DNA of 64,000 nucleotides from Thermoplasmata archaeon. Its GTDB lineage: Archaea; Thermoplasmatota; Thermoplasmata; Lutacidiplasmatales; UBA184. Positions 8,412 through 42,992 of this stretch are shown in pieces (within the stretch, counting starts at the first letter, position 1; every line of letters begins with the position of its first letter). Under the pieces are notes generated by a model. The model saw nothing but the letters and a program-made list of their open reading frames with translations, was not told where the DNA came from and did not search any database. The stretch lies in contig DASYYY010000021.1 of assembly GCA_035933635.1 (NCBI GenBank), forward strand, positions 86,918-150,917. Direction: 5' to 3'. Position numbers and translations under genes: made by a program.

Positions 8412-8708
8412 CTAGATTCGGACCGTGAACCCCGGCCCGACCGTTCGTGCCGGGGACCGCTCGAGCCGGTCGACCCGCTCCGCGTCGCTGGCGCCGTACC
8501 GGCCTCCGATTCGGACGGCGAGGGCCTCCAAGCGCCGGACCGGCCCCTGCACGTCGACCAATACCGAGCCATCGGCCTCGTTCCAAACCTCCCCCGAGAG
8601 GCCAAGGGCCTGGGCAGCTCGACGCACCCGTTCGCGATAGCCCACGCCCTGGACTCGACCGGTCGCCCGGAGTCGCCAGTGCTCGACCGGCCCTTCCCCA
8701 GCGTTCAC
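8412..8708 (-). CDS. acyP: Acylphosphatase
   Basis: 98 aa. Both acylphosphatase signatures are present: GRVQGVGYR and GEVWNEADGSVLVDVQG. Confidence 0.8.
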   Translation of the reverse strand: MNAGEGPVEHWRLRATGRVQGVGYRERVRRAAQALGLSGEVWNEADGSVLVDVQGPVRRLEALAVRIGGRYGASDAERVDRLERSPARTVGPGFTVRI

Positions 8709-8831
8709 TCGACGCGCGATGGAACGAGGCGGCTCATGAGCCTAGTTCGTCCGATCGTTCGGCGGCGACGGAATGTCTAAGAGCCGATTCGACCCAAGAT
8801 ACTCTGGATTCTGCTCTCGAACGCATCTCCG

Positions 8832-26168: not shown

Positions 26169-26188
26169 TGGGCCCAGTCGGATTTGAA
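26169..26188. repeat. attL-like direct repeat TGGGCCCAGTCGGATTTGAA, identical to the 3' end of tRNA-Ile at 42668..42687
   Basis: 20/20 nt identity with tRNA nt 56–75 (T-loop 3' half plus acceptor 3' strand). Flanking sequence diverges on both sides. The interval between the repeats has lower GC and carries mobile-element genes. Confidence 0.6.
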
Positions 26189-26343: not shown

Positions 26344-26835
26344 TCATCGGTCGCCACGGCCTATGACGTCTTCGAGGGGTTTCCACAATGACCAGTACTT
26401 CTCCGGGAGCCACAGGCTGCCAGTGCTGTCATCTTCACCGTAGTAGCGACTCACGCTCCGGGTAGCACCCTTCGGGGTGGCGGCGTGGGATATTGGGGGC
26501 GATCCGCCATTTCGACCGCCGAGGGGTCTGAGGTCAAAGATTACAACGTAGTCGCTCAGGCGCAGGGATGCTGCCTTTCCCAGAGGCACGACTGAGTTCC
26601 GAGTCCCTTTCACCTGTAGCGTCCGCGGTCTCGATCCGCTTTTCGAGACGAGCAGCAGGTCCGGCCCCGCGGAGTTCTTCGCAGTCGGGATGGCGTGCCA
26701 ACCAAGTTTCGAAGCTACGACCATCGACCAGCCGAGCGCCTCTAGGCTGGTGCTGACGTTCCTCCACTGATCCCGCCCCATCGGGCTACCCCCTCGGAGG
26801 AGCGTTAAGGCCTGTTCGTAGCCAGCCCCGAGCAA
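26344..26835 (-). CDS. Hjc-like (archaeal Holliday-junction-resolvase-fold, PD-(D/E)xK) nuclease-like protein
   Basis: N-terminus GAGYEQALTLL and core SAGPDLLLVSKSGSRPRTLQVKGT parallel the Hjc motifs (GxxxERxLxxxL and SAGSxxxDLVA...IEVKxT). Here Q replaces E in the (E/Q)VK motif, as in Mrr. Confidence 0.4.
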   Translation of the reverse strand: MLGAGYEQALTLLRGGSPMGRDQWRNVSTSLEALGWSMVVASKLGWHAIPTAKNSAGPDLLLVSKSGSRPRTLQVKGTRNSVVPLGKAASLRLSDYVVIFDLRPLGGRNGGSPPISHAATPKGATRSVSRYYGEDDSTGSLWLPEKYWSLWKPLEDVIGRGDR

Positions 26836-27060: not shown

Positions 27061-29437
<2,377 letters not shown>

Positions 29438-29639
29438 CTATAAGCTTCCCAGTTTCCACAAGATTGAACGGTGGAGGGTGCCACCCCCATTGGCTTCCCA
29501 GAGAGTGTAGGGCCTAGCCGCGCCATATCGGGCCCGCGCCCCATTCCGGGGAGCAGCGCCTGTCGGCTCGGACTCGGGCCAATGCTGGCCGCACCTCCTT
29601 ATCAGGTAGGTCGAATTCGAGACCCCGGGGAGTGTCCGG

Positions 29640-31019
29640 ATGGCACCAAAGAGGAAGAGGCTCTCATCGACTCACTTTTCAAGCATCCTTCTGCGCAACT
29701 TCCGCTGTTACAAGGATTCTGGCCCGATTCCATTCAAACCTCTAACCATAATCTTGGGGCCGAACAACGTCGGGAAGTCAACCATCCTAAACTCCATCCT
29801 CCTGATGAAGCAAAGTCTGGCAGTCGATACTCCTCGAGAGGCGATCATTACTTCCGGACCCCTGGTCGATCTCGGTGGGTTCTCGGACGTTCTCCACAGA
29901 GGTGCATCCAAAGGCGATCGGTCGTTCACGGTGGAGCTCCAGGCGACTTACTCAGGTCAGAACTCGCCTTTTGGAGGTTTTCGTGATGACCTGAAGTCAC
30001 CGTCGAAGGATCGTGGGATCATCGGTCTCAGTCTAACATTCGGGTATAGCTCAGCGGCAAATCAGATCCTCGTTCGTGAGGTAGAATTCCGACGCGATGG
30101 CGTGACTGAACTGAAATTCAAGGGTCACGGCTCCCGAATCTTCCTGCTCAATCCAGACGGCTCAGAGCGTTCAGATTTGGAGGTCCACCTCCTGAATTCT
30201 CTACCCCTTATTCACGGCAAGGTTGGGCGGAAGGGGAAACCAAATGAAGACCAAGTCCGCGATCTCTCGCGCCTAGGAAATCTCTGCATCTCTCATGCAT
30301 GGGGTTGGACGGACTTTCACCGCAGTGTGGGTTATGTCGCCCCACTCCGCGGCCCGACCCCGCGATACGCGACTTCGGGTTCCACGTCTCCGGGTGGGCC
30401 CCTCGCTACACCCGCTGGACTTCTGCAGGAGCTGAAGAGCCGTCGAAGGCTCAGACCTACCGGGAAGCAATTGATCAAACTCGTTGAGGACTGGGCCAAG
30501 AATCAGCTTGGCGTCCTCAGGGGCCTGGACCTCCGGTCCATCGACAAGGCTGGAACCGTATTCGCGCTCTTCGTCGATGAAAGGTCTGGGTTCCGGGGAA
30601 TCAATATCGCGAGCATGGGAGAAGGCGTCTCGCAGCTGATTCCAATCTTGAGCGCAGTACTAGGGAGCAGGGACGGCTCCTGCGTCCTGGTCGAACAACC
30701 CGAACTCCACCTCCACCCGGATCTTCAAGCCCGCATTGCGGACCTGTTCGTGGATCAGGTCGTGAACAATCGCAAGCAGATCATCTTGGAGACCCATAGC
30801 GAGCACCTGCTCCTGAGAGTCCGCCGCCGGGTTGCGGAGGGAACACTCGACCCCTCCCAGGTCGCGATTCTGTACGTCGACCGACCGGGTCGCGAGTCGC
30901 GTGTACGGAGCTTGCCCATCGATTCGGACGGCCACATCGGTCAATGGCCTGAGGGTTTTTTCGAAGAGGGGATTGAGGAAGCGTACCGAATCGCATCCGC
31001 GCGATCTGGCGGGGCTTAG
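29640..31019 (+). CDS. AAA_21/AAA_15-type (ABC-like, OLD/Septu/PARIS-family) ATPase
   Basis: LRNFRCYKD...IILGPNNVGKSTILNSI (Walker A after an NFR motif), a long insert, then VLVEQPELHLHPDLQ (Walker B/D-loop) and ILETHSEHLL (H-loop). C-terminal ...GQWPEGFFEE tail. Divergent from the MTase-Mrr gene. Confidence 0.8.
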   Translation: MAPKRKRLSSTHFSSILLRNFRCYKDSGPIPFKPLTIILGPNNVGKSTILNSILLMKQSLAVDTPREAIITSGPLVDLGGFSDVLHRGASKGDRSFTVELQATYSGQNSPFGGFRDDLKSPSKDRGIIGLSLTFGYSSAANQILVREVEFRRDGVTELKFKGHGSRIFLLNPDGSERSDLEVHLLNSLPLIHGKVGRKGKPNEDQVRDLSRLGNLCISHAWGWTDFHRSVGYVAPLRGPTPRYATSGSTSPGGPLATPAGLLQELKSRRRLRPTGKQLIKLVEDWAKNQLGVLRGLDLRSIDKAGTVFALFVDERSGFRGINIASMGEGVSQLIPILSAVLGSRDGSCVLVEQPELHLHPDLQARIADLFVDQVVNNRKQIILETHSEHLLLRVRRRVAEGTLDPSQVAILYVDRPGRESRVRSLPIDSDGHIGQWPEGFFEEGIEEAYRIASARSGGA

Positions 31020-31023
31020 GTCC

Positions 31024-31521
31024 GTGGAGGTCACGGTCGACACGAACGTATTGGTTAGAAGTGGAGTAAAGAGCGATCCAGCCCGCCCGGCATGTTTCGT
31101 GTTCCTCCATGAGTTCAAGGCGCGCGAAGATCTCGTCCTGGCGCTAGACGATGAAGAGCTCGTCGAGAGAGAGTACCGGGCTCACCTCAACCCGATGACA
31201 TACGGTCACCACTGGCTTCGGACCATTCTTCTTATGAAGGCCCGGACGAAACTCCTCAAGCGAGCAGAGTTGCCGCCGGCTGTCCGAGCCGAGCTCTTGG
31301 ACGAGTGCCACCTGGACCCACCTGATCTCAATCTCTTCGTGCGCGTGGCCCTTGCGTCGAAAGAGAAACTCATCGTAACCCACGATGGCGACTATTGGCG
31401 GAGCTCTAGGCGATGCCTAAAGAGACGGCTCAAGATCGAGGTCGAATCTGCGAAGTCGGTCCATCCCAAGCTTTGCGGGGGCCAGTGGGAAGACTGCCGC
31501 CGGCGAGTTATGGGGGGGTAG
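31024..31521 (+). CDS. PIN-domain nuclease-like protein, translationally coupled to the ATPase
   Basis: GTG start 4 nt after the ATPase stop. VEVTVDTNVLV (first PIN acidic residue), acidic ALDDEELVERE, LDPPDLNLFVRVALA (third Asp) and LIVTHDGDYW (fourth Asp) give the PIN four-acidic-residue topology. The only ATG in frame would truncate the DTNVL motif. Confidence 0.55.
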   Translation: MEVTVDTNVLVRSGVKSDPARPACFVFLHEFKAREDLVLALDDEELVEREYRAHLNPMTYGHHWLRTILLMKARTKLLKRAELPPAVRAELLDECHLDPPDLNLFVRVALASKEKLIVTHDGDYWRSSRRCLKRRLKIEVESAKSVHPKLCGGQWEDCRRRVMGG

Positions 31522-32021
31522 GAAGTTACCCGTGCGCATCTGGTTCCAGCCCTCTCAATTCGGGGAAACTTAAAGACGCCACGGACCTTTACCCTAGCTG
31601 AACATGGATCTCGCTTCGACCCCGAATTCTGAAGTGCGGAGTGAACAAGCATTGATTCGTCAGGTCTCGCGGTCGAGGTTACCAAACGACCGCGAACGGC
31701 GCGAGCACCGTCACGGGACCGGCAACTCAATCAAGGCATTCTTCGCCTGCCCCGGGTGTGGACTCCCTATTCCCTTTGGCGGCGCACCCTGACCAGACTC
31801 CGACTCCCTGTTCTTCTGCGAATCGCTCGCTGGAATCGCCAAGATTCAGTCGGATACCTGGAAGACGTAAGGGTCTCAGCGGCCCCTGATTAAATCGGGT
31901 GCCTTGCCGGAGCCCCCCTCCCCTCGGGCTTCTCCGGACCCTTTCGGGACGGCGGGGTTACGTGAAGACCCCCGGTGAGGCGGGAGGATCGGACCCTGTC
32001 CGCTGAATAGGACAGAGATAC

Positions 32022-32639
32022 TTGCGGCCGAAGGAATCGGTCGCCCACATCATGACGGCGGAACTGCCCCCTCCGGACCGACGGATTATCGCGGAGTTCT
32101 CGACCGACGCCGCCGGCCGCACCCGCGGTCGCCTGATCGTGAACCTGGCCGGTCTGGCAGTTCTAACCGTCATCCTACTTTCAGTGTTTGGATGGGCGGT
32201 TGTGCGCGAGCCGGAGGCATCACTGCGCGCACTGGCAGCCGCCTCCATCGCCGGACCGTTCGTTTTCGGCGCTCTCGCGGTTCTCTTTGCTCGTCGCGCT
32301 TCCGCCCGCCGTCCACCGAACCTCGTCCGACTTTCCGACTGGGGTGTGGAGTTCGATGCCCCTCCGACAACGCCTGGTCTCGCCCCCGAGGAGAGCGGCG
32401 GCGCTATTGCGTGGCCGCACGTCGGGAGGGTCGAGATACAAGAAGCGGCCCGGGCGAGGAGACGAGCTGGGTTGTCTCAGGTTACCTTCTATTCACGCGA
32501 GTTCCACAGGCGGCCAATAGCGTTCACGGTCCCTCGCTTCTGGCCATGGGGTATCCGCATCCCATATCTTCGACGGGAGGACGCCGAGAAGATCATCGAA
32601 CTCGCCGAGGGATGGATCGCTTCCTCGACCACGGACTGA
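32022..32639 (+). CDS. Hypothetical membrane protein (2 TM)
   Basis: TM helices LAGLAVLTVILLSVFGWAVV and AAASIAGPFVFGALAVLFA. An alternative start is at 32052 (MTAEL). Confidence 0.35.
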   Translation: MRPKESVAHIMTAELPPPDRRIIAEFSTDAAGRTRGRLIVNLAGLAVLTVILLSVFGWAVVREPEASLRALAAASIAGPFVFGALAVLFARRASARRPPNLVRLSDWGVEFDAPPTTPGLAPEESGGAIAWPHVGRVEIQEAARARRRAGLSQVTFYSREFHRRPIAFTVPRFWPWGIRIPYLRREDAEKIIELAEGWIASSTTD

Positions 32640-32654
32640 GGTTAACGGACCAGC

Positions 32655-33263
32655 CTAGCTCCACTCGTTCCGTCGACCGAGTCCCTTGGGCCGCTTCGCG
32701 AGGAGTTCCCTAATCGCCCGGTCGGCCATGTTCAGTTCTCTGGGGATCTTGACCCAAGTTACGGACGATAGCCCGGCCAAGTCCGCACGGATCCCGTCCC
32801 GGATTCGCGCGGCGATGTCAACATCCCCCAGCTGAATACTCACTTGGCTATCCTCCCCGTTCATGTAACGAATGACCTGGTCGCCATCCCCGAGGAATCT
32901 CGCTCGCCTCGTGCAGCCGTTCGTCTTGAGGTGGAGCGCCGCGCCACGGGCGGCGATGAGGTCATACAGTTGGGTGCCGCGTGCCCACGCGCTCTGGACA
33001 ATCAAGTCCCAGTTGTCCTGCCATATGCGCGCCAGGGGCGGGTCCCAGGATGCAATCGCGGCGCCGATGGGGGAAGATAGGCAAGACTGACCGCCCGAAG
33101 CCTTGTCTGGATTGGGCTGGCCGTTGAACGACACGAAGCCCAAGTCAACGCGGTTCGGGTAGCCTTCCTTGCTCCAACGAACGCCTGAATCGAAGTAGAC
33201 CCAGACCTCATCCCAACCGCTGATTGCTCCTGATCTTTGCCGCCGCACGATCCAGTAACCCAA
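32655..33263 (-). CDS. Hypothetical protein (202 aa)
   Basis: Non-repetitive ORF in the island. No family recognised. Confidence 0.35.
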   Translation of the reverse strand: MGYWIVRRQRSGAISGWDEVWVYFDSGVRWSKEGYPNRVDLGFVSFNGQPNPDKASGGQSCLSSPIGAAIASWDPPLARIWQDNWDLIVQSAWARGTQLYDLIAARGAALHLKTNGCTRRARFLGDGDQVIRYMNGEDSQVSIQLGDVDIAARIRDGIRADLAGLSSVTWVKIPRELNMADRAIRELLAKRPKGLGRRNEWS

Positions 33264-33371: not shown

Positions 33372-33935
33372 GTGGCCGCTACATACAACCGCGGCGTAGC
33401 CGGCTCGGAGATGGATTCGCGGAATACTGTTGCGAAACGCGTAGCCCATGAGTCCGGACCAGAAGGGTCACCGCGCGATCAGCGGCTCGTGCGGATCGGC
33501 CTGCTCGTGTTCTCCGCTGGCTTCCTGAGCTCAATCACCGGCATCCAGGTCCTCCCTCCCGGCTACTTCCCGCCCTGGCAGACCTCCGCCCCCCTCGTTT
33601 GGGTCGCTTGGGGTTGGTTGACCGTAGGGGCTTTGGCAGCTGGAGCGACACTTGCCCTCGCAGCAGCCGCGCATTCCCACCGGTCGTGGCCGTTCGCGGA
33701 GTTCCGAGTCGCTCCTGACCCGAAGGATATGGACCCGCGGCTGTGGTGGTCACTCGTCGGATCATTCTCGGCCCTCGTCGGGGTCGTGTTCGTCTGGACG
33801 TACGTGCTAGGCAACCCGTACTTGGACGGGCACTCCATCGTTCATTGGGGAGCTTTGGCCTTTCTAGTCTTGGGGGTAAGTTGGATGGTAGGGCAAGCCG
33901 TGGTGTCCCGAAGAAAGAAGACCGCGTACCTGTAG
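33372..33935 (+). CDS. Hypothetical membrane protein (4 TM)
   Basis: Four hydrophobic segments (LVRIGLLVFSAGFL..., LVWVAWGWLTVGALAAGATLALAAAA, WWSLVGSFSALVGVVFVW, GALAFLVLGVSWMVG). Confidence 0.35.
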   Translation: MAATYNRGVAGSEMDSRNTVAKRVAHESGPEGSPRDQRLVRIGLLVFSAGFLSSITGIQVLPPGYFPPWQTSAPLVWVAWGWLTVGALAAGATLALAAAAHSHRSWPFAEFRVAPDPKDMDPRLWWSLVGSFSALVGVVFVWTYVLGNPYLDGHSIVHWGALAFLVLGVSWMVGQAVVSRRKKTAYL

Positions 33936-34688: not shown

Positions 34689-35330
34689 CTATTTTGGTCC
34701 GGTGACCGAGAGCCGACCTGCTGGATCGGGTCCAATCTTTCGGCACGTTCCCGCCGGGAGGCCCACGTGCTGTGCCACCTCCTTCCAAGGAAGACCTCGC
34801 GACCGGAGCTCACGGACTCGAGCCGCCAGCTCGGGGGTCACACGGCGGGGTCGCCCCGGAGGTCGCCCGCTCCGGGTGAGCCGCCGTCCCTCCCGGAGTT
34901 CCCTCATCGCGACCCGGACTCGCTCGGAGCGCCGCTTGGACTCGAACGCCGAGATGACCGGGAGCAGCGCCAGGAGCACGTCCCGCCCCAAGTTCGGTCG
35001 GCCGTCCTCTGGCGTATCGAGCGTGGACTCCTTCAGCGAGTGGAACCGGACCCCGGCCGCCTCGAGGTCGAGGATCGTCTGGGTCGCTCGGGTGAAGGTG
35101 GCCTCCCGGCTGAAGCGGTCGAGGGACCACACGAGGAGGTGGGTCCAGATCCGGTCGGGTTTCCGGGCATCGGAGAGCAGCCGTTCGTACTCTACCCGCT
35201 CGACCTTCCCGGTCCCGGAAACCTTCTCGGCGTAGACCGCTGTAACCGACCAACCGCGACGGTCCGCTTCCGACCGTAAGTCGCGTTCCTGACCCGCCAA
35301 GTCCTGGTCTTCGGTCGAAACTCGGAGGTA
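34689..35330 (-). CDS. Serine recombinase (resolvase/invertase family), start codon unresolved
   Basis: VALYLRVSTEDQDLAGQERDL (catalytic Ser motif), VWSLDRFSR and a C-terminal HTH (GLPWKEVAQHVGLPAGTCRKI). No ATG/GTG/TTG lies within about 50 codons upstream of the catalytic motif in frame. The ORF-track N-terminal 130 aa (Arg/Pro-rich) are unlikely to be real. Confidence 0.65.
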   Translation of the reverse strand, partial: YLRVSTEDQDLAGQERDLRSEADRRGWSVTAVYAEKVSGTGKVERVEYERLLSDARKPDRIWTHLLVWSLDRFSREATFTRATQTILDLEAAGVRFHSLKESTLDTPEDGRPNLGRDVLLALLPVISAFESKRRSERVRVAMRELREGRRLTRSGRPPGRPRRVTPELAARVRELRSRGLPWKEVAQHVGLPAGTCRKIGPDPAGRLSVTGPK

Positions 35331-35497
35331 AAGTGCGACCGAACAGTTGGCCGCCCCCGGAACGACCTCCTCCGGCGGGGGAGGGGACCGAGGCCGGGCC
35401 TCGTGGGGGGTAACCGTTAGTTCGTCCGTTTGAGTCGGCGTACTAAACTCGCAGTTCGACTCTAGCGCCGCCCCAGAGGGGGCCAATTGGCTCCCGG

Positions 35498-35743
35498 TCA
35501 AACGTCCCCTCTCCGCCTCGCCCGCAGCCGTCGCCGCCTGAGCGCGTCGGTATCCCGTCGGTAGTCCGGGTAGCAGACCGGGCAGATCCAAGACCGCGAA
35601 CGGTTCGGCAAGGTCTTGCCGCACCCCTGGCAATGCTTGCGATCGTACGGTTGGGCGGTGCGACCGTGCTCGCGGTCCGAGTACCGAAGCTCCCTCCCCC
35701 GGATCCAGAGGTGGTCGTAGAACTTCCCCGGCCGTTCGACCAT
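35498..35743 (-). CDS. Small zinc-ribbon protein (81 aa)
   Basis: CQGCGKTLPNRSRSWICPVCY (CxxC...CxxC). Located upstream of the recombinase. Confidence 0.3.
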   Translation of the reverse strand: MVERPGKFYDHLWIRGRELRYSDREHGRTAQPYDRKHCQGCGKTLPNRSRSWICPVCYPDYRRDTDALRRRRLRARRRGDV

Positions 35744-36251
35744 GGTTAGCCCCTCTCAATCGACCCGGGATTGGGCGAGCGGCAGGGGGACCTTGGTTGG
35801 GCTTCGGTGCGCCCCGCTGTAACCGTCCTAGGCCGATTACAGGGGGTACTGGCCCAGCTGCAGTCCGTACTCCCGGGGTGCAGTACTGCACCAGCCGAGG
35901 ATACCGGGAGCTGGGGATGGAAATCTAGGAAAGAGTGCGCCCGGCCGCTCCGCGGGACGGTTACGTACCGTCTGGGGGTGTAACCGTCCGTCAATGAGCG
36001 CTGATCTCGTGCCCGGTTACGCTCACAGGGCCTCGTTCCTCCGTCCGAGTATCCCGAGCGCAAGTCGAGCGGTCCCGGTGACCGCCCGGTGGGAGAACGG
36101 GGGTTGTTCCGTCGGGGTCCCCCGAGTGCGGAATCCTTGGACTTGTTCTTCTCGGGATTGTAGCCCGGCAACCTCCCGGTGTAACCGAGCATGGGAGATG
36201 CACCCGGACGAGCACGCTTACAGGGGCCGGCTCGTGCCTTGGGACGTTCGC

Positions 36252-36686
36252 TCATTTGAGGGCCTCCCGGATCTCCTCGTAGAGGCTCCTCCAGCGGTCG
36301 GCGCGTCCCTCGGGATCGGGGTCCAAGGAGGCCCGTCGAGTGAACTCTCCGGCTTGCAAGTCGTACCTGCGCAGGGCCTCCCGGAAGTATCCCACCAGGT
36401 CGGGCTGAGGGAGTCGGTACCCCGCCCGCCAAAGGTTGAGCGCCTCGGCCATGTGCTCCGCCAGCCCCAGTCCGAGGCCGTGGAGCCAAGCGAGGTCCTC
36501 GCTGCTCGGGAGCCCCTCCTCAGTAGCCGCTCGTTCGCGTACCGCCGCGGCGCGTGCCCGTTGCCGAAAGGCGTGGACGTTGTTGAGCCGCCGGGACCGC
36601 TGGTGCTTGGTCCAGCAGTCAGCGCAGAACTGGCTCCGGGGCCCGATCCTGGGCTGGGCGTTGCAGCGATTGCAAACCGCGATCAT
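36252..36686 (-). CDS. Hypothetical protein with N-terminal zinc ribbon
   Basis: MIAVCNRCNAQPRIGPRSQFCADCW. 4-bp overlap (ATGA) with the upstream methyltransferase gene. Confidence 0.4.
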   Translation of the reverse strand: MIAVCNRCNAQPRIGPRSQFCADCWTKHQRSRRLNNVHAFRQRARAAAVRERAATEEGLPSSEDLAWLHGLGLGLAEHMAEALNLWRAGYRLPQPDLVGYFREALRRYDLQAGEFTRRASLDPDPEGRADRWRSLYEEIREALK

Positions 36687-37723
36687 CGGGAGCTCCGCCT
36701 ACCCCGGAGGCGATGGGGACGCTCATCCCGGAGCCCAGCGAGATTCCGGGTGAGAACCTTCCAGTTCTTCGGGCTCGCCTCGATCCCGACCGACCTCCGG
36801 CCGAGCTTGTGGGCGACCCGGAGGGTCGTCCCGGAGCCCGCGTACGGGTCCAGGATCGTGTCGCCCGGCTTGGTGAGGGTCGCGACGAGGAGGGTGACGA
36901 GGTCCTCGGGCTTCGCTGCGAACAGGTCCCCCTCCATCGACGGGAGCGAGAACACCACGTCGACCGGATAGTGCCAGCCATTCGAGGAGTACTCACGTCC
37001 TTCGACGGGGTACTCGCCGTGGTGCTTCGGCCCGGACCACTTGATCGCGTGCCAGGGCTTCCCCCGACGGTGCATCGCGCCGAGGTTGAACGTGAGGTCG
37101 CCGACCTTCGCGTCCTTCCGCTTGAAGACGTGGAGCATCTCGTGGGCGCGGAGCGGTTCGTAGTCGGAGAGCCAGGGGGAGGACCGGATGGGACCTCCGA
37201 CCCGACCCTTGACCCAGACGATTTGGAACCGGTGCTGGAGCCCGACGTCCATGAAGGCTGAGGCGGCCCGGATCGCCATCGCTCCAGCACCGTGTAGGAC
37301 GACTTGCCCGGTCGGGCAGAGTACCCGGGCGATGTTCACGCCCAACCAATCCCAACTCGGGACTCGATCCCAATCCGCGGACGTAGTACCGTAGGGGGGG
37401 TCCAAGTAGGCCAGGTCGAACGAGTTCCTCCGGAGACGGGGTAGGATGTCCTCCGCGATCCCCGAGCGAAGTTCGGGTTGGTAGAGCCTCGGTCGGCACT
37501 TTCCGTAACCTTCGCGAATAAGGTGGCGTCGGTGACCTTGGGTGTAGGACCGATCGCAGAGGTACCAGTGGGGACCATGGCGGTGCGGGGCAACCGAAAG
37601 CGGCGGGTCGGGGTGACGCGCAGGACCGGCCGTTTTGGGGTCCCCGGGTACTTGCCCCTGGTCGGCCGTCAGGAGGCACCTCCCGGCGTGCCCCCGTCGT
37701 CCTCCCATCGCTGCTGCGCGCAA
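36683..37723 (-). CDS. DNA methyltransferase (N6-adenine/N4-cytosine, beta-class), apparently orphan
   Basis: DLAYLDPPYGTT (motif IV) precedes ILDPYAGSGTTLRVAHKLGRRSVGIE (motif I). No adjacent restriction endonuclease gene. The start overlaps the prim-pol gene's 3' end because no in-frame start lies downstream of it. Confidence 0.75.
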   Translation of the reverse strand: MRAAAMGGRRGHAGRCLLTADQGQVPGDPKTAGPARHPDPPLSVAPHRHGPHWYLCDRSYTQGHRRHLIREGYGKCRPRLYQPELRSGIAEDILPRLRRNSFDLAYLDPPYGTTSADWDRVPSWDWLGVNIARVLCPTGQVVLHGAGAMAIRAASAFMDVGLQHRFQIVWVKGRVGGPIRSSPWLSDYEPLRAHEMLHVFKRKDAKVGDLTFNLGAMHRRGKPWHAIKWSGPKHHGEYPVEGREYSSNGWHYPVDVVFSLPSMEGDLFAAKPEDLVTLLVATLTKPGDTILDPYAGSGTTLRVAHKLGRRSVGIEASPKNWKVLTRNLAGLRDERPHRLRGRRSSR

Positions 37724-40059
37724 CCCCCCCAGTCGACCGGGCTGGGTGGGCTTACCGGGCTTTCGGCCCTGGTCTCTGACGTTGGCCTGCCAAGCCCACC
37801 TCCAAGCCCGCCCTCCCCTGGGCTAACCGGGCTTTCGTAATCGTCGTCACGAAGGGAACGCTGAAGCCCACCAAGCCCGGGTAGCCCGGGTCCATGTAGG
37901 CTCCCGCGCAGCAACATTTCCTGGTCCGATGTTGATACCCTCACCGCGTGCCGGCGGTCGGTGGTCTGGTTGACACGGCCCAGGCGGGTCAGGCCGAGAG
38001 CCCTGAGCAGCCCCGGGATCGAGTTCGGGTGCACTTTGGTGTCCCTGGCGACCTTCCCGGCGTTCACCGCCTCGGCGATACGGACCGTGGGCAACACCCA
38101 CAGTGCCTGGTCCGCGTCCCACCCGACCTTGTTGTCGAGGAGGGTCAGAAGGGACGCCCGCACCTCTTCTGCGTCGTCGTCGACCGCCCCATCCTCGATC
38201 CCCCCAAGCCGCGCCTGAATCGCTTCCTCGGCGTCCCACCCCATGACGTGGCCGATGACGAGCATCAGCTCCCCGATCTCGTGGGTCCTGGGGAGTTCGC
38301 CGGTCAGCCGGTCCGCCGCGGTTTCGAACTCTTCCGACTCCTCGTAGGCCAGGAGCGAGTCGCGGTCGAAGCGCTCTCGGGCCCTCTCGGCCTCGAGCTC
38401 CAGCCACGCTTTGACCGACGCGAGGTGTCGCTTGTAGTACTTCGCCCGTCGTCGCTCCGCCTTCGGGTCCGACCGGCGATGGAGGTCGATGCAGTCAGTT
38501 CGGGAGCCAAGGGCGGGATCCTTCGAATCCTCGCAGTAGTTGAACGCGCAAGGGCCGAACGTCGGGATGGGAACGGCCGCGTGCTCCGTGCGGCCATCCG
38601 GACCCTTTCGTTCCTCTGTCTTCAGATACGGCTGGTCTCGGTCCGTCCCTTGGCGCAGGATGGTCCGCACCAGGTCGCCAACGTCCCGTCGCCGAAGGGT
38701 GACATCCACCTCATCGAGCGCAAGTCCGCGGCCTCGCCTCTTTGCGTCGGCTACGGCAGCGAAAGTAGCGACGCCGACGAGGAACGAGTCGTCCGCGAGG
38801 TAGGCCCAAATCCGTGTCGCCGTCGACTTTCCACTTGTCGGGGGCCCGCGGAACCCGAGGTGCCAGGTTTTGTCGAGCCGGTCAAGGATGTACGTCTGGG
38901 CGAGGTGGAGGAGAAGCGCGTCGTAGTCAGTCTCGTTCGGAAATACAACGATCCGACGGATGGCAGCCTTCGCTCGGGAGTAGTCCATCGACCGGGCCTC
39001 CGCGAGTACCTGGGGGCTCCACGGGAGGTGGGCACCTGCCGGTCGGAGCTCCAAGTCCACGCCGCTTTCGGACGCCTTGGATTGCGTGACGCGGGCCTCG
39101 ACCCGGTTCCACACTTCTCTCTCGAAGTACTCGGACCCACGTTCTGGCGTCTTTGTGTGTGGGGCTTGGAGCACGACCGCGAGGACGCTCTCTTTGTCGA
39201 AACCGGCCCTCTTCAGAAATGTGACGAGCCGAAACTCTGTCTGGGATCGGTCCACGCCGCCGGCCGGGCGGACGAACCCCTCATGGAACAGGGAACGCGC
39301 CTTCGGATCCTTCTCAACGGCGTCGAGGGCGGCGCGGACCCTTGTATCTCTGGGCGTAGCGACGCTCGACGCAAGCCCGGAGACTGTGGTGGCCCTAGAA
39401 ACTGCGGCGGCGTATTCATCGGGCAGCCACGCGGCTTGTGCCGCAAGCGCCTCGCGGGCGCTCGGGTAAACCGGGACCGCTTCCCCCGCAATAGGCTCGT
39501 ACGGCCGTTCGCCGTTTTCGAAGCGGCTCGGGGCTACGATGCAGAGGCCACTGCCGAGCAGGTCGTAGTAGCCGCCGAGGCCGGTCCACACTCGACTCCG
39601 TGCCCCATCAGGGTGCGCCGCGACTGGCTCGCGTGTGATGAACAGGTCGTGAGTCCCCGAGCTCTTCGTTGACTCGCGGTAGCCCGGCGCGTCACCCTCT
39701 GAGACGAGTTGTCGGGGGAGGGACGACCCACCCGGGGGGCGTTTTCGAACGTCCGTGTCTCCAGCGTTCAGCCACCCACCAGCTGGAAGCTGGCCGAGAG
39801 CGATCGCGAGCTGCGCATTGGGTCGCGAACGCCAGAACTCGCGGACCTCCGACTCCGACCGGAGAGGACCATCTGTCGTCCAGCGGATCAGCGGCCGCGG
39901 CCCAGGCTTCCCATTCGCTCCGCCCGCGAGAAAAGGGGCGAGCGGGACTACGCCGACGCCCATCCCGACGAAGAAGAGGGCAGCTTCTAGGACGCTGGTG
40001 AACCGAGGAATCCGCGGAGCATCGGTGCCCTCGTCCGCGGAGGGGCGATCCTGGCTCAT
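37669..40059 (-). CDS. Replication protein: bifunctional primase-polymerase (prim-pol) domain plus P-loop NTPase/helicase (D5/P4-like) domain
   Basis: N-terminal prim-pol motifs (GKPGPRPLIRWTTDG..., ...GLCIVAPSRFENGERPYE). Central Walker A LGFRGPPTSGKST. 796 aa. ATGA coupling with a 56-aa upstream ORF. Confidence 0.7.
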   Translation of the reverse strand: MSQDRPSADEGTDAPRIPRFTSVLEAALFFVGMGVGVVPLAPFLAGGANGKPGPRPLIRWTTDGPLRSESEVREFWRSRPNAQLAIALGQLPAGGWLNAGDTDVRKRPPGGSSLPRQLVSEGDAPGYRESTKSSGTHDLFITREPVAAHPDGARSRVWTGLGGYYDLLGSGLCIVAPSRFENGERPYEPIAGEAVPVYPSAREALAAQAAWLPDEYAAAVSRATTVSGLASSVATPRDTRVRAALDAVEKDPKARSLFHEGFVRPAGGVDRSQTEFRLVTFLKRAGFDKESVLAVVLQAPHTKTPERGSEYFEREVWNRVEARVTQSKASESGVDLELRPAGAHLPWSPQVLAEARSMDYSRAKAAIRRIVVFPNETDYDALLLHLAQTYILDRLDKTWHLGFRGPPTSGKSTATRIWAYLADDSFLVGVATFAAVADAKRRGRGLALDEVDVTLRRRDVGDLVRTILRQGTDRDQPYLKTEERKGPDGRTEHAAVPIPTFGPCAFNYCEDSKDPALGSRTDCIDLHRRSDPKAERRRAKYYKRHLASVKAWLELEAERARERFDRDSLLAYEESEEFETAADRLTGELPRTHEIGELMLVIGHVMGWDAEEAIQARLGGIEDGAVDDDAEEVRASLLTLLDNKVGWDADQALWVLPTVRIAEAVNAGKVARDTKVHPNSIPGLLRALGLTRLGRVNQTTDRRHAVRVSTSDQEMLLRGSLHGPGLPGLGGLQRSLRDDDYESPVSPGEGGLGGGLGRPTSETRAESPVSPPSPVDWGGCAQQRWEDDGGTPGGAS

Positions 40060-40473: not shown

Positions 40474-41526
40474 TTGGGGGGCCCCGCTCACATGTCGAAG
40501 AGAATCCTAGACCCATGGGACCCGCACGGGTCGCCCGAACGAAAGCGCAGGGCGGTGCCTTCAGAGGCCCGAGCGCTCGTCATTGACCTGCTCGAGGAGT
40601 TGACCCCACGACGACATTCGCCCAACGATCCCATTCCGATTGGGCTGATGCTTGACGAATCCGAGCGGTGGGTCGGGAGCGGACGCTGGAAGTACGGGCC
40701 GCCCGCCGGGCGCCATACGCTCGAGGTCCGGATCCTCCGCGCGATGGCCCCGCTGATTTCAGAGGGGCGAGTGCGCCGCATCGAAGGTCACGGATTCCTC
40801 CTCGCCGGAGCTGAATCTGCCGACCGGGCTCTCGAACGAGCAATACAACGTCTCCAATGGGTCCGTGACGCGCTCAAGCTACCGAAGGCCGAACGGGGTA
40901 CGTGGGCCGGGTCCGCCTGGACCTATGCGACCTGGGCCTTCGTCGACGCGATTCCACTCGTGGAGGATCGAGTCTCCGATGAGATGGAGAAGTGGAAGCG
41001 AGAGCGAACCACCCTTCGCCGAGTCGATGACGATCCGATGAATGCACACCTGGAAGCGACGCTACGCGGATCAAATCTAAGCGTCCCTGACGCGATTCGC
41101 GAGATGGGCCAGGAGATCTTCGCCTCCGGCCTGAAGCACCAGCTCGCACCGAAGTGTGAGCTATGTCAACGCGATTTGCCTCATGAAGGGAAGGCTACGG
41201 ATTTTCACGAGGCGATCGAATCGAGGTTGAAGCTCGTCGAGGGGTTCGACCCGACCGCGCACGGTCACTCCCCGTGCGGGGAACAGTGCAACGCCTTCTG
41301 GCTTCTGGATTACCTCAGGCACGGGATGAGGGAAGCCCCGCCGCAGTGGGCGAAGGAGCTACCGCCTGCACCGCCGGCGCCCTTACTACCGCTTGGTTCT
41401 CGTCCAGCCGCGACACAAACTCCCACCCCTCGGCGAGCATGGCGCCGACTTCGCAAATCGGGACCGCCTTCTGAGCTGGTCTTACGGGCGCGGCGGAAGC
41501 GAGGAACTTCCCGAAGATCGCCTTGA
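40474..41526 (+). CDS. Hypothetical protein (element-encoded). C-terminal ~200 nt overlap the integrase gene on the opposite strand
   Basis: Non-repetitive sequence up to about residue 285, then a Pro/Arg-rich tail. Likely start is MSKRIL (40492). No family recognised. Confidence 0.3.
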   Translation: MGGPAHMSKRILDPWDPHGSPERKRRAVPSEARALVIDLLEELTPRRHSPNDPIPIGLMLDESERWVGSGRWKYGPPAGRHTLEVRILRAMAPLISEGRVRRIEGHGFLLAGAESADRALERAIQRLQWVRDALKLPKAERGTWAGSAWTYATWAFVDAIPLVEDRVSDEMEKWKRERTTLRRVDDDPMNAHLEATLRGSNLSVPDAIREMGQEIFASGLKHQLAPKCELCQRDLPHEGKATDFHEAIESRLKLVEGFDPTAHGHSPCGEQCNAFWLLDYLRHGMREAPPQWAKELPPAPPAPLLPLGSRPAATQTPTPRRAWRRLRKSGPPSELVLRARRKRGTSRRSP

Positions 41527-42622
41527 GCTCGTCCTCGGATTTCTCAGCGAGGTCGAGCTTATCCAACTCACCCTGCGGCATCCCCCGGGCTGAGAGTAGT
41601 GCCTTGAGGACCTTGTTGACACCATCATCCGCCCCGGACTTGGTGGGGACGGTCGAAAGAAACGGCTCGCACCGCTTGTAGGCGGCCCTCTGGTCCTCGA
41701 CCATAGATGCCGGGAGGTTCGGTCTCCCGGTCGTGTAGTGTCGCGCGGTCACGTCCCCGGTGTGTCCCGACCAGAACTCGACGTACCTATCCGAAACTTT
41801 CCCCGCGTTCGCCGCCTCGAGGCAGCGAGAGAAGAAGTAAGAGCGAAGGGCGTAGGGGCGGGCCCCGATTCCAGCAGCGCGGAGGGCCTGGCGCGCCCGG
41901 TCGCCCACGTTGATCGTCGTCATGAACCGCTTGATGCTCTTCGACGGCGACACTAGGTCTGTCTCCTTGTCGATCTTCTCTCCTCCAAGCGCTCTCTCCT
42001 CGAGGTGCTGCTTGAGGTACTCGCAGCCCTCCGTCCCCAGGAACGTAAAGTAAGCGTGCCCGGCTTTCGACGAGGTGGAACGAACCTTCACCAAGGCCGG
42101 GACCTTCTCGATTTGGACGGTCTTCGCATGGATCGAGAGCCCTTCGATGTCGCCAACTCGGAGCCCATCCGTGCCATCGTACGAGCCCAGCACCTGCGGT
42201 CGAAGCCCGCTGAAAGCCATCAGAGCGATTACGACGCGCTGCCCCGGGTTGGCTGCAAGGACAGCCTTCCGAAGCTGTTCCGGTGTGATCGGGTCCTCCC
42301 GTTCGACCCGCGGATGCGACCTCTCGTTGGGGACCTTCAGACCTCTTGGGAGTTCCTTCTCATTGTAAGCTAACCAGCTCCGTAGCGCTTTGAGTGTAGT
42401 CCGGACATACTCTCCTGAGTGCTTCGCCCTGCGTTCTTCTTCGAGGTAGTCCTCCAACTGCACCCGGAGCCGATCCTTTGAGACTTCGGCGAGAGTTTCC
42501 GGGTCGGTCTTCATCTGGCGACAGAATGCCTCGATCCGCCGTCGGCTCACGTCAGCGTAGAGCTGCGATCCGCGGGCAACATTTCGGTGCCAGCGGTCAA
42601 ACTTCTCTGACGGATTGGCCAT
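41315..42622 (-). CDS. Tyrosine recombinase/integrase
   Basis: ALMAFSGLRPQVL (box I Arg) and WSGHTGDVTARHYTT (HxxR...Y box II). 45 nt from the 3' end of tRNA-Ile. Confidence 0.85.
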   Translation of the reverse strand: MANPSEKFDRWHRNVARGSQLYADVSRRRIEAFCRQMKTDPETLAEVSKDRLRVQLEDYLEEERRAKHSGEYVRTTLKALRSWLAYNEKELPRGLKVPNERSHPRVEREDPITPEQLRKAVLAANPGQRVVIALMAFSGLRPQVLGSYDGTDGLRVGDIEGLSIHAKTVQIEKVPALVKVRSTSSKAGHAYFTFLGTEGCEYLKQHLEERALGGEKIDKETDLVSPSKSIKRFMTTINVGDRARQALRAAGIGARPYALRSYFFSRCLEAANAGKVSDRYVEFWSGHTGDVTARHYTTGRPNLPASMVEDQRAAYKRCEPFLSTVPTKSGADDGVNKVLKALLSARGMPQGELDKLDLAEKSEDELKAIFGKFLASAAPVRPAQKAVPICEVGAMLAEGWEFVSRLDENQAVVRAPAVQAVAPSPTAAGLPSSRA

Positions 42623-42667
42623 GGCCTCGATAGGCCCAGCGCGTGTGGGTTAAAATGGGTTCCTACT

Positions 42668-42742
42668 TGGGCCCAGTCGGATTTGAACCGACGACCTCCC
42701 GGTTATCAGCCGGGTGCTCCAGCCAACCTAAGCTATGGGCCC
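42668..42742 (-). tRNA. tRNA-Ile (anticodon GAU)
   Basis: Manually folded 75-nt cloverleaf: 7-bp acceptor stem GGGCCCA/UGGGCCC, D-stem GCUU/GAGC, anticodon stem CCCGG/CCGGG with loop CUGAUAA, T-stem GUCGG/CCGAC with loop UUCAAAU, discriminator A. CCA is not encoded. Confidence 0.85.
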
Positions 42743-42992
42743 ATTGCGTCGCAGTTCGTGCTGCGGCGCGGGGCCCACGAACGCCCTCCTACTAAATTCA
42801 ATCCCCTCAATCGAACCCGATTCCTCTCGGGGCCGGAGGGGTTCTCACCGAGGCTGGTCGCGGGATTCGTGGGCTCATCGCCGGCCGCGAAGAGGTGTGG
42901 AGAGGTGCCGCCCGCCAGCCTCGTCGAGTCTGTAGCCTTGTTACTCTGACCGGGACCCGAACGCGGCTCGGGCCGGACGTCGACCGATCGAT

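Follow-up and report, generated by a model that had tools for sequence, protein, structure and literature searches.

The locus analysed here raises the question of whether an ABC-type ATPase gene, closely followed by a gene for a PIN-domain protein in a 64,000 nucleotide stretch of DNA from a Thermoplasmata archaeon (hereafter the window), represents a new kind of defence system. A preliminary description of this DNA had suggested as much, presenting the pair as an undescribed and possibly archaeal module. Its guess at an archaeal host is borne out by the encoded proteins, which match a Thermoplasmata MAG. Its claim to novelty does not survive, because the combination of an ABC ATPase bearing DUF3696 with a PIN protein has already been named, and experimentally validated, as HEC-03. 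On sequence comparison, homology of the window pair to HEC-03 is very likely, and we consider the pair to be probably a divergent HEC-03 family member of archaeal (Thermoplasmata-type) origin, with a defence-type role. What is new is the divergent Thermoplasmata-type clade to which it belongs, which is about 26% identical to the tested HEC-03.

The first gene of the pair (ORF1) runs from an ATG at 29640 to a TAG at 31017-31019, and its 459 aa product carries the NCBI name 'DUF3696 domain-containing protein [Thermoplasmata archaeon]'. Pfam matches to AAA_15 (1.9e-27), AAA_21 (1.3e-21) and DUF3696 (3.2e-09, residues 403-443) each exceed the gathering score. The AF2 model (pLDDT 91) lacks a coiled coil, ends in a helix formed by residues 442-456, and finds its best Foldseek matches among SMC, Rad50, PtuA and GajA heads, while neither Pfam nor the model provides evidence of a TOPRIM domain in ORF1. 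The Pfam and Foldseek results uphold the earlier assignment to the ABC ATPases of the OLD, Septu, Gabija and PARIS type, and the motifs on which it was based, NFR...GPNNVGKST (with LRNFRCY lying upstream of GPNNVGKST), CVLVEQPELHLHPD (residues E352-D361) and ETHSEHLL (beginning at E384), can all be read in ORF1. Across 96 homologues, G40, G45 and K46 of Walker A are invariant, as are P354 and E355 of Walker B (E352, Q353, H357 and H359 being nearly so), E384, H386 and S387 of the H-loop region, and P437 of the W436-P437-x-G-F-F motif of DUF3696, in which W436, G439, F440 and F441 are nearly invariant. The Walker B motif has E-Q in place of the usual D-E dyad, followed by P-E, and EQPELHLHP aligns with 'EEPEMYLHP' in OLD, 'DQPEISLH' in AriA (which has DQPE where ORF1 has EQPE) and 'DEPTVYL' in Rad50. 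Since the position of the catalytic glutamate is occupied by Q (EQPE), the ATPase cycle of ORF1 may be unusual.

The second gene (ORF2) follows the ORF1 stop codon after four nucleotides (GTCC) and opens with the GTG at 31024, in agreement with the roughly 165 aa frame originally noted there. A longer reading of this frame, from a TTG at 30832, was rejected as a gene, because every homologue begins at an aligned M/V-x-L/V-T-V/I-D-T-N-V and strand β1 occupies residues 2-5 in the model. The AF2 model of ORF2 (pLDDT 96) has a VapC-like PIN fold, VapC toxins are the nearest fold in structure searches, and the segments DTNVL, DPPDLNLFVRVALA and IVTHDGDYW, previously taken to carry the acidic constellation of a PIN domain, are all found in ORF2. 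The predicted protein combines a PIN α/β/α fold with a set of four conserved acidic residues, putatively located where strands end at their C-terminal side and helices begin; in the PIN family D42, D101 and D121 never vary, and position 6 holds either D or E. The PADLOC HEC-03 PIN model matches ORF2 over its full length at a modest E-value (1.1e-6), and BLASTP against the tested HEC-03 PIN protein finds 33% identity in an N-terminal segment of 57 aa (E 1e-5). Pfam PIN_3 (E 0.021) falls below its gathering score and NCBIfam returns zero matches for ORF2. Pfam and NCBIfam alone are uninformative here, and it is the PADLOC model together with the structure search that identifies ORF2 as a PIN protein, as the preliminary description had proposed.

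A profile of archaeal, Planctomycetes and tested PINs retrieved 775 homologous proteins of about 150-170 aa. The HEC-03 PIN model is matched by 108 of 120 aligned members of this family, and none of its members matches the NsnC models at E ≤ 0.001. Protein searches with the ORF1 family returned more than 2000 ATPase homologues. Given these numbers of homologues and the confident AF2 models, we regard ORF1 and ORF2 as genuine genes, as opposed to ORFs that arise by chance in GC-rich DNA. Coordinates of both, and of the surrounding features, are collected in Table 1.

Table 1 The ATPase-PIN pair, its motifs and the features of its carrier element, in window coordinates
Feature	Position	Strand	Basis or remark
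Distal att repeat, 20-nt copy of the tRNA-Ile 3' end	26169..26188		Exact match to 42668-42687
N6_N4 DNA methyltransferase fused to Mrr-type PD-(D/E)xK domain, 592 aa, divergent neighbour	27623..29401	-	
ORF1, ABC-type (OLD/AAA_15/AAA_21) ATPase with C-terminal DUF3696 helix, 459 aa; probable HEC-03 ATPase component, Menshen NsnB-like platform	29640..31019	+	
Walker A / P-loop GPNNVGKST (G40-T48, lysine K46)	29757..29783	+	Sequence reading
Walker B-type motif EQPELHLHP (E352-P360)	30693..30719	+	Sequence reading
H-loop region ETHSEH (E384-H389)	30789..30806	+	Aligns to THS motif of OLD, AriA
DUF3696 C-terminal module, residues 403-456	30846..31007	+	Pfam, AF2, conservation
ORF2, stand-alone PIN-domain protein, 165 aa; probable HEC-03 PIN component	31024..31521	+	GTG start
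Acidic residues of ORF2	D6 (31039-41), D42 (31147-49), D101 (31324-26), D121 (31384-86)		
Candidate third gene, 62-aa unannotated micro-ORF ending ...REHRHGTGNSIKAFFACPGCGLPIPFGGAP	31604..31792	+	
Serine recombinase / invertase in element	34689..35891	-	Pfam Resolvase 9.7e-26; PHROG DNA invertase 2.9e-28
Second N6_N4 DNA methyltransferase	36683-37723	-	Pfam N6_N4_Mtase 3.7e-23
Prim-Pol primase, 796 aa	37669-40059	-	Pfam Prim-Pol 4.7e-09; PHROG DNA primase 4.5e-07
Integrase-like gene, adjoins tRNA	41315..42622	-	PHROG phrog_1 integrase 1.1e-10
tRNA-Ile(GAT), integration target	42667..42743	-	ARAGORN; Rfam tRNA 67 bits

HEC-03 (Hma-embedded candidate 03) was described as an ABC ATPase (DUF3696) plus a PIN protein by Payne, Hughes, Fineran & Jackson (bioRxiv 10.1101/2024.01.29.577857), and has been catalogued in PADLOC-DB since 2023 (models PDLC04147/PDLC04148 in v2.0.0). 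The tested system, from Pseudomonas cichorii ATCC 10857 (WP_025259138.1 and WP_025259137.1), protected E. coli against phages, reduced the plaquing of at least two of them by orders of magnitude, needed both of its genes to do so, and was toxic when induced (10.1101/2024.01.29.577857). Among PADLOC models, ORF1 is matched best by NsnB (3e-57, 193 bits), followed by PDC-M55A (3.6e-52, 176 bits) and the HEC-03 ATPase (1.8e-44, 150 bits), and so scores about equally on three models. The HEC-03 alignment spans model positions 5-441 of 458. However, proteobacterial members score 445-823 bits on the same model, and the window ATPase falls outside the tight proteobacterial group represented by that model; by BLASTP, ORF1 is 26% identical to the tested ATPase WP_025259138.1 over 402 aa (E 3e-33). 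Our assignment is based on matches to the PADLOC HMM library, on BLASTP and on architecture. In these terms, ORF1 is a homologous ABC ATPase with a C-terminal DUF3696, ORF2 is a homologous stand-alone PIN protein, and the two genes are adjacent on one strand, ATPase first, with a gap of 4 nt. The profile searches called for in the preliminary description return AAA_15, AAA_21 and DUF3696 for ORF1 and HEC-03 models for both proteins. Archaeal HEC-03 is unmentioned in the HEC-03 and Menshen papers and in an archaeal defence survey.

The association between the two genes extends well beyond the window. In 11 of 11 distinct loci sampled from archaea and bacteria, a PIN gene lies immediately downstream of a 446-472 aa DUF3696 ATPase gene, which provides the conservation as neighbours that had been suggested as a check; among these loci the arrangement varies from genes overlapping by 20 nt to genes 4 nt apart, in unrelated surroundings. 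Divergence of the ATPase and of the PIN protein is correlated among loci (r = 0.97, n = 8), and homology shared by the archaeal loci is limited to the cassette. The pair interrupts the ccm operon in Methylovulum and is also carried by Aeromonas and Azotobacter plasmids. It is, in short, a tightly coupled cassette that moves horizontally. No ATPase-PIN fusions occur among the longer ATPase homologues, whose added length consists of inserts. Three independent bacterial HEC-03 loci have RNA-ligase genes 3' of their PIN gene. The window pair itself falls in a small divergent clade of Thermoplasmata-type MAGs (the window, L001, L002 and L004), which at E ≤ 1e-30 amounts to just two clusters at 50% identity, and a search of genome contigs with an alignment of four sequences returned a single locus, situated on the same contig as L001.

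Members of this clade may possess a further gene. ORFs of 59-63 aa with the motif R-x-H-[RK]-H...FF[AP]CPGCG[LFY]PI are found in the window, in L001/L011 and in L002/3/5, so that two archaeal loci besides the window keep the micro-ORF 3' of their PIN gene. Codon differences within the motif are mostly synonymous, and tblastx homology between the window and L001 stops at 31783. The micro-ORF has no Pfam match, is absent from the protein collection, and was sought without success in L004 and in bacterial loci. These observations suggest an accessory component of the archaeal pairs, its membership in the ATPase-PIN system being uncertain.

The preliminary description had also placed the pair inside an integrated mobile element, which is confirmed and can be given more exact borders. 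The pair is cargo of an element of ~16.5 kb integrated at tRNA-Ile, the ends of which are an exact 20-nt direct repeat (TGGGCCCAGTCGGATTTGAA), with the proximal copy (42668-42687) forming the 3' end of tRNA-Ile(GAT). The repeat was detected by matching k-mers of the tRNA-Ile region to the whole window, and a repeat search within 24-38 kb revealed just short repeats at chance level. G+C content dips from about 0.70 to 0.58-0.66 over roughly 26-44 kb, the onset of this drop coinciding with the distal repeat. The integrase-like gene beside the tRNA is recognised by PHROG and has zero Pfam matches at 1e-3. The second methyltransferase and the Prim-Pol gene (36683..40059) are modification and replication genes of the element. 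The divergent neighbour of the pair is a methyltransferase-Mrr fusion, as originally reported, with Pfam matches to N6_N4_Mtase (1.1e-45), Mrr_cat (2.3e-06) and NA-iREase1 (2.2e-07), and a match to PADLOC MTase_II (8.6e-55).

What is available for the window pair is homology, folds, conserved residues, conserved gene order and mobility; phage protection, the requirement for two genes and induced toxicity come from the 26%-identical P. cichorii homologue. A mechanism can be outlined from these sources, which we put forward tentatively and which could well be wrong in its details. ORF1 and ORF2, separated by 4 nt, would be co-translated and form a complex, in which ATPase dimers or tetramers would hold the PIN protein via the DUF3696 tail and keep it inactive. 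A virus-derived cue would then affect the ATPase at its variable β-rich inserts, shifting the nucleotide state of the enzyme, upon which the PIN domain would be released or activated. VapC toxins cleave tRNA or rRNA, and the putative four-carboxylate metal site of the PIN domain (D6, D42, D101, D121) would likewise cleave RNA, most likely tRNA or rRNA, so that the infected cell would be arrested or viral transcripts degraded. The RNA-ligase neighbours together with the VapC-like fold suggest an RNA target. The presumptive parts of this scheme are assembly of the complex via DUF3696, the nature of the trigger and RNA as the substrate, and we infer the docking of the PIN partner on the DUF3696 module from AF3 models of Menshen NsnB-NsnC (PMC12065111).

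Other interpretations of the locus deserve consideration. One, which we find unlikely without being far-fetched, is that the Thermoplasmata-type clade, having kept a catalytically competent stand-alone PIN, forms a lineage of its own within a wider 'DUF3696-ATPase platform' superfamily (HEC-03, Menshen and PDC-M55). If this were true, three of the four archaeal loci would carry a third component, the 59-63 aa protein with its HxH...CPGCG zinc-knuckle-like motif, and the resulting archaeal three-component variant could be the ancestral state that gave rise to the Menshen inactive-PIN adaptor, a link drawn by neither the HEC-03 nor the Menshen paper.

The cassette might instead act mainly as an addiction (toxin-antitoxin-like) module that stabilises its element, the PIN protein serving as toxin and the ATPase as a proteinaceous antidote, with defence secondary or absent in this host. 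Its carriage as cargo by an integrated element and by plasmids would suit such a module, two of the plasmid loci having AbiE/Hok or AbiG modules near the cassette, as would a PIN fold nearest to VapC toxins and the toxicity of the tested HEC-03 upon induction; moreover, the analogous AriA has been labelled 'antitoxin' by PDB depositors. However, with the tested homologue several phages formed plaques at an efficiency lower by orders of magnitude, an effect for which both genes were needed, and a 459 aa ATPase with sensor-like variable inserts exceeds the needs of an antidote. We judge a chiefly addiction-type role to be improbable, and the two roles are in any case not mutually exclusive.

It is very improbable that the pair is an undescribed Septu/PARIS-like variant, distinct from all named systems. 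Low identity to the tested HEC-03, an ATPase equidistant from three PADLOC families and a possible clade-specific micro-ORF would be compatible with that reading, yet the defining architecture, in which a stand-alone PIN comes after a DUF3696 ABC ATPase, is exactly that of HEC-03, and the PIN family is continuous at the profile level from the window clade to the tested protein. Furthermore, neither the HNH partner of Septu nor the DUF4435/TOPRIM partner of PARIS is present, and the models of PtuA and AriA give only partial matches. There is a slight chance that the locus is a reduced or partial Menshen (NsnABC), with ORF1 as NsnB, ORF2 as a truncated NsnC, and NsnA lost or located elsewhere: NsnB is the best PADLOC match of ORF1, the AAA_15 plus DUF3696 architecture is as in NsnB, and the first domain of NsnC is PIN-like (PMC12065111). 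Against this, ORF2 is a complete single domain, of a length (about 150-170 aa) conserved among the 775 homologues. It lacks an effector domain at its C-terminus, it retains the acidic PIN residues missing from NsnC inPIN domains, and its family leaves the NsnC models unmatched. NsnA, with its ParB-DUF262 and ParBDB domains, was found neither in ORFs neighbouring the window pair nor in the 11 loci sampled. Finally, a housekeeping SMC/Rad50/RecF-like or transporter ATPase beside an unrelated small ORF2 is effectively refuted, as the weak N-terminal P-loop matches to RecF, Rad50 and SMC and the SMC and Rad50 heads found by Foldseek span the P-loop or generic ABC head alone and fall far under the family cut-offs, whereas ORF1 lacks a coiled coil, lies on a mobile element and has homologues in unrelated contexts that always accompany a PIN gene.

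Membership of the HEC-03 family, which remains our preferred reading, has several consequences. A divergent HEC-03-type cassette is now documented in archaeal Thermoplasmata-type MAGs, on a tRNA-integrated element. A pairing that looked novel from sequence alone, yet had been in PADLOC-DB since 2023 and was validated in 2024, also offers a calibration point. Setting HEC-03 beside Menshen yields a testable assembly model, stated by neither paper, in which the DUF3696 tail clamps the PIN protein. The RNA ligases of bacterial pairs and the CPGCG micro-ORF of archaeal pairs, which suggest an RNA target and accessory components, could additionally guide work on the HEC-03 mechanism.

Comparison with known systems places the window pair as follows. 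In VapBC the toxin is accompanied by a small DNA-binding antitoxin of the VapB type (AbrB/RHH/PhD), whereas a 459 aa ATPase lies upstream of ORF2; no antitoxin ORF lies between the two genes, as the gap is only 4 nt, and the likeness of ORF2 to VapC families is below Pfam thresholds. Septu (PtuAB), PARIS (AriAB), Gabija (GajAB), OLD and PDC-M55 share with ORF1 the OLD-type ABC ATPase clade, as partial PADLOC and PDB matches show, and they follow the logic proposed for the window pair, in which a nuclease effector is held or controlled by an oligomer of the ATPase. PtuB is an HNH protein, AriB belongs to DUF4435/TOPRIM, and GajA and OLD have a fused TOPRIM. Unlike the effector of the window pair, the effectors of these systems are not PIN proteins, PDC-M55B being 352 aa long, and the DUF3696 tail is missing from their ATPases, PDC-M55A-type proteins excepted (the ATPase of L018, for which PDC-M55A is the best PADLOC model, bears the annotation DUF3696 domain-containing protein). 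The PtuA, AriA and GajA models align to parts of ORF1 only, the NCBIfam PtuA score being 39.5 bits against a cut-off of 500, and ORF2 has no match to PtuB, AriB or GajB-type partner models. Although ORF1 matches PDC-M55A, PDC-M55B finds no match in ORF2; a genuine PDC-M55B partner (352 aa) is found on a Bacillus plasmid.

Menshen (Millman et al. 2022) shares several features with the window pair: ORF1 has the architecture of NsnB, an ABC ATPase with a DUF3696 helix, and in both cases the downstream partner starts with a PIN-fold domain. In this NsnA-NsnB-NsnC system (Li et al., NAR 2025, PMC12065111), NsnC joins an inactive PIN adaptor (inPIN, with acidic residues lost) to a separate C-terminal nuclease, whereas ORF2 is a single 165 aa domain that keeps its catalytic carboxylates. 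Since AF3 models of 23 of 24 Menshen systems show the PIN-like domain of NsnC clamped by the NsnB DUF3696 tail, two such tails holding it (PMC12065111), Menshen provides the best available assembly template for the window pair.

Differences from the tested HEC-03 itself are those of a distant relative. The two are about 26-27% identical, the window host is archaeal, position 6 of the PIN protein is D in the window and E in the tested protein, and the tested genes overlap whereas those of the window are separated by 4 nt. Unlike HEC-03, the window pair lies beside a methyltransferase-Mrr fusion without Hma embedding, and its clade possibly has the extra downstream micro-ORF. Nevertheless, both consist of an ATPase of ~460 aa with DUF3696 followed by a stand-alone VapC-like PIN protein of ~160 aa, in overlapping or nearly abutting genes. 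Their PIN proteins share the acidic positions, the cysteines C24/C151 and a D-D-x-x-L-x-x-x-Y motif, and each pair occurs in association with mobile elements and with genes for defence.

The ATPase–PIN gene pair belongs, as a divergent archaeal member, to HEC-03, a named anti-phage system made up of an ABC ATPase and a PIN-domain protein (Payne, Hughes, Fineran & Jackson, bioRxiv 10.1101/2024.01.29.577857). The tested pair, from Pseudomonas cichorii ATCC 10857, consists of WP_025259138.1 ('DUF3696 domain-containing protein') and the 157-aa WP_025259137.1; in E. coli it cut the plaquing of at least two phages by orders of magnitude, both genes were needed, and the system was toxic on induction (10.1101/2024.01.29.577857). 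The paper letters the ATPase 'A' and the PIN protein 'B', and the PADLOC HMM names are reversed. In PADLOC-DB, ORF2 (the PIN protein) matched the HEC-03 small subunit (1.1e-6, model positions 1-148 of 159) and no other model, and ORF1 (the ATPase) matched NsnB of Menshen (3e-57), PDC-M55A (3.6e-52) and the HEC-03 ATPase (1.8e-44, full length). Direct BLASTP against the tested proteins gave 26% identity over 402 aa for ORF1 (E 3e-33) and 33% over the N-terminal 57 aa for ORF2 (E 1e-5), and multiple alignment finds C24, D-D-x-x-L-x-x-x-Y, D-x-x-D, D-x-D and a C-terminal cysteine common to ORF2 and the tested PIN. A PIN profile spanning archaeal, Planctomycetes-type and tested sequences retrieved 775 proteins, all of ~150-170 aa, and 108 of 120 aligned PIN-family members matched the HEC-03 PIN model (best 3.5e-87); the family is therefore continuous from ORF2 to the validated PIN. 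The preliminary description had suggested that the pairing may be an undescribed, unnamed system; the PADLOC and BLASTP matches place it in one with reported phage protection, and since the pair is a HEC-03 member, what we find is the very outcome that the description had named against its own claim ('an already named system'). The system itself is not new; what is new is its divergent archaeal member. Proteins identical to ORF1 and ORF2 are recorded from a Thermoplasmata archaeon MAG (as 'DUF3696 domain-containing protein' and 'hypothetical protein', respectively), in agreement with the possibly archaeal origin suggested earlier.

The pair is assigned to HEC-03 by its PIN partner, as the ATPase by itself does not tell the families apart. 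On the PADLOC HEC-03 ATPase model, proteobacterial ATPases score 445-823 bits and the window, other archaeal and Planctomycetes-type ATPases ~140-160 bits, the latter scoring slightly higher on NsnB or PDC-M55A than on HEC-03. A narrow archaeal-PIN profile recovered 289 50%-identity clusters at E <= 1e-3, of which only two reached E <= 1e-30; given so few close clusters and the low ATPase bit scores, the window pair belongs to a small, divergent clade. A Bacillus pacificus plasmid (CP093425.1; L018, 3374-5835) carries a DUF3696 ATPase with PDC-M55A as its best PADLOC model, followed by a 352-aa PDC-M55B protein in place of the PIN, with an AbiGi/AbiGii pair adjoining. Because PDC-M55B stands here where others have a PIN, this locus shows that the DUF3696 ATPase serves as a platform whose partner can be exchanged (PIN, PDC-M55B, NsnC).

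The motifs previously quoted for ORF1 are all present, reading LRNFRCY...GPNNVGKST (Walker A, K46), CVLVEQPELHLHPD and ETHSEHLL. Its Pfam matches (AAA_15 1.9e-27, AAA_21 1.3e-21, C-terminal DUF3696 3.2e-09) and its AF2 model (pLDDT 91), which has an ABC head like that of SMC, Rad50, PtuA and GajA, β-rich inserts, a terminal helix (442-456) and no coiled coil, bear out an ATPase of Septu/Gabija-related type. In alignment, the Walker B region of the family is E-Q-P-E (D-E in Rad50, D-Q-P-E in AriA). Where the canonical catalytic glutamate would stand, the family has a nearly invariant glutamine, as in AriA; catalysis may use the P-E glutamate as its base, or the enzyme may be a slow switch. The C-terminal tail, W-P-x-G-F-F plus a helix, is conserved in the family.

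The GTG start of ORF2, 4 nt past the ORF1 stop, holds as described, because every homologue starts at an aligned M/V-x-L/V-T-V/I-D-T-N-V; a longer version of the frame in a mechanical ORF list, from TTG-30832, is rejected on the same alignment. An AF2 model made from a 120-sequence alignment has very high confidence (pLDDT 96.3), and the fold is VapC-like. D42, Y51, G61, D101 and D121 are invariant in 120/120 PIN-family members, T7, N8, C24, D98 and D123 are nearly so, and position 6 is D or E. In the model, the acidic residues lie where β1 and β2 end, where the post-β3 helix starts and just past β4; as this is the canonical PIN metal-site layout, the modelled domain looks catalytically competent. 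Model, layout and HEC-03 PIN match together uphold the identification of ORF2 as a PIN-domain protein.

For the three nearest PIN homologues (74%, 56% and 52% identical), the gene follows that of a 458-466-aa AAA_15/AAA_21/DUF3696 ATPase after 4 nt or 1 nt, in unrelated flanks (an integrase; aconitase/thiolase genes; TFIIB). Where ATPase identity is ~40% (a Planctomycetes MAG; another bacterium), the downstream ORF overlaps the ATPase gene and encodes a 154-159-aa member of this PIN family. Distant PIN members occur in the same pair in Methylovulum, Burkholderia (adjoining an integrase fragment and an HTH gene), a metagenome (adjoining a DEAD helicase and HATPase_c_3), and Aeromonas and Azotobacter plasmids. 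Tested as conserved neighbours across genomes, the two genes were present and adjacent in 11/11 distinct loci sampled, with unrelated flanks. Across loci, identity to the window proteins declines in step for ATPase and PIN (r = 0.97 over 8 phylogenetically non-independent loci), and tblastx of the window element against other archaeal loci found homology limited to ~29592-31783, the cassette alone. In Methylovulum psychrotolerans (GCA_002923755.1; L012, 3627-5474) the pair interrupts the cytochrome c maturation operon between ccmE and ccmF, a clear example of a cassette landed within a housekeeping operon; the insertion also has a 121-aa cysteine-rich putative membrane ORF.

A 3'-terminal tRNA repeat flanking DNA is the textbook layout left by integration into the 3' end of a tRNA gene. 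Here, the 3'-end 20 nt of tRNA-Ile(GAT), TGGGCCCAGTCGGATTTGAA (42668-42687), recur exactly at 26169-26188, the onset of a G+C drop from ~0.70 to 0.58-0.66 across roughly 26-44 kb of the window, and this direct repeat bounds an integrated element of ~16.5 kb (~26.2-42.7 kb). The integrated mobile element described earlier is thereby confirmed and given borders; it has an integrase-like gene. Its cargo includes the ATPase–PIN pair and, divergent from the ATPase gene, as had been noted, across a 238-nt spacer, an MTase–Mrr fusion, one of two N6_N4 MTases in the element. The functional reading, an ATPase + PIN defence cassette on a mobile element in an archaeal host, is sound.

Features of the window and of related loci
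Feature	Locus	Position	Strand	Remarks
ORF1, ATPase, 459 aa	window	29640-31019	+	TAG stop 31017-31019
ORF1 residues 352-355	window	30693-30704	+	Walker B region E-Q-P-E, from sequence
ORF2, PIN, 165 aa	window	31024-31521	+	GTG start at 31024; ORF reading
Micro-ORF	window	31604-31792	+	unannotated
Micro-ORF counterpart	L001	~8579-8758		
Micro-ORF counterpart	L002	8660-8851		also L003, L005, L011
MTase–Mrr fusion, 592 aa	window	27623-29401	-	N6_N4 DNA methyltransferase + C-terminal Mrr_cat / NA-iREase1-like PD-(D/E)xK domain (GVDG...IQVK)
Serine recombinase	window	34689-35891		in element
Prim-Pol primase	window	37669-40059		in element
Integrase-like gene	window	41315-42622		abuts tRNA; PHROG integrase 1.1e-10
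tRNA-Ile(GAT)	window	42667-42743	-	sole tRNA within window
Element ORFs without family match	window	26344-26835, 27061-27669, 32022-32639, 32655-33263, 33372-33935		
RNA ligase PF09414	L015/L016	5719-6165		E 2e-33
RNA ligase PF09414	L017, Aeromonas veronii plasmid NZ_AP022291.1	5895-6596		E 9e-31
RNA ligase PF09414	L019, Azotobacter chroococcum plasmid NZ_CP010420.1	5888-6580		E 5e-12

A plausible alternative, compatible with defence, is that the pair is an addiction module for its carrier element. That it represents a partial Menshen (NsnA-NsnB-NsnC) fails: the NsnA/DUF262 gene is absent here and in every related locus, ORF2 is a complete single-domain protein, and no PIN-family member matched the NsnC models (E <= 0.001). 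Septu, PARIS and Gabija do not fit by effector type in the PADLOC-DB search. A housekeeping ATPase is excluded by the family scores (RecF, SMC, Rad50 and ABC-transporter profiles matched the P-loop alone, far under cut-offs), by the absence of a coiled coil and by its location on a mobile element.

Three divergent archaeal loci have a micro-ORF of 59-63 aa, 80-165 nt past the PIN gene, with the common motif R-x-H-[RK]-H...FF[A/P]CPGCG[L/F/Y]PI. Nucleotide changes in the motif are mostly synonymous, at third positions, which argues for translation. The micro-ORF had no match in a 15-billion-protein collection, no Pfam family, and no counterpart in the archaeal locus L004 or the bacterial loci; the archaeal cassette may have in it a third component or a regulator. 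Three bacterial HEC-03 loci, independent of one another, have a gene of the RNA ligase family (PF09414) immediately after that of the PIN; the window locus has none, and the HEC-03 preprint (10.1101/2024.01.29.577857) makes no mention of a ligase. Such a neighbour is suggestive of RNA cleavage by the PIN and of damage open to repair.

The remaining interest lies in the archaeal HEC-03 clade, in the micro-ORF and RNA-ligase neighbours, and in a structural link between HEC-03 and Menshen that neither paper states. No published mechanism for HEC-03 was found in the literature searched, and the Menshen analysis (Li et al., NAR 2025, PMC12065111) is the most useful template. There, NsnB combines an ABC ATPase with a DUF3696 helix, and in NsnB tetramers predicted by AF3 the N-terminal PIN-like domain of NsnC is gripped by a pair of DUF3696 tails (23/24 systems modelled), resembling the grip of PtuA and AriA on their nucleases (PMC12065111). 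By analogy, ORF1 may hold the ORF2 PIN via its conserved W-P-x-G-F-F/helix tail; from complex formation onward, we infer that infection would alter the nucleotide state of the ATPase, and that the PIN would then be released or activated. Its substrate would be RNA, to which the VapC-like fold and the RNA ligase gene in three independent bacterial loci point. Unlike Menshen NsnC, the ORF2 PIN has retained the carboxylates and lacks a further nuclease domain, and for these reasons it would be the effector itself.
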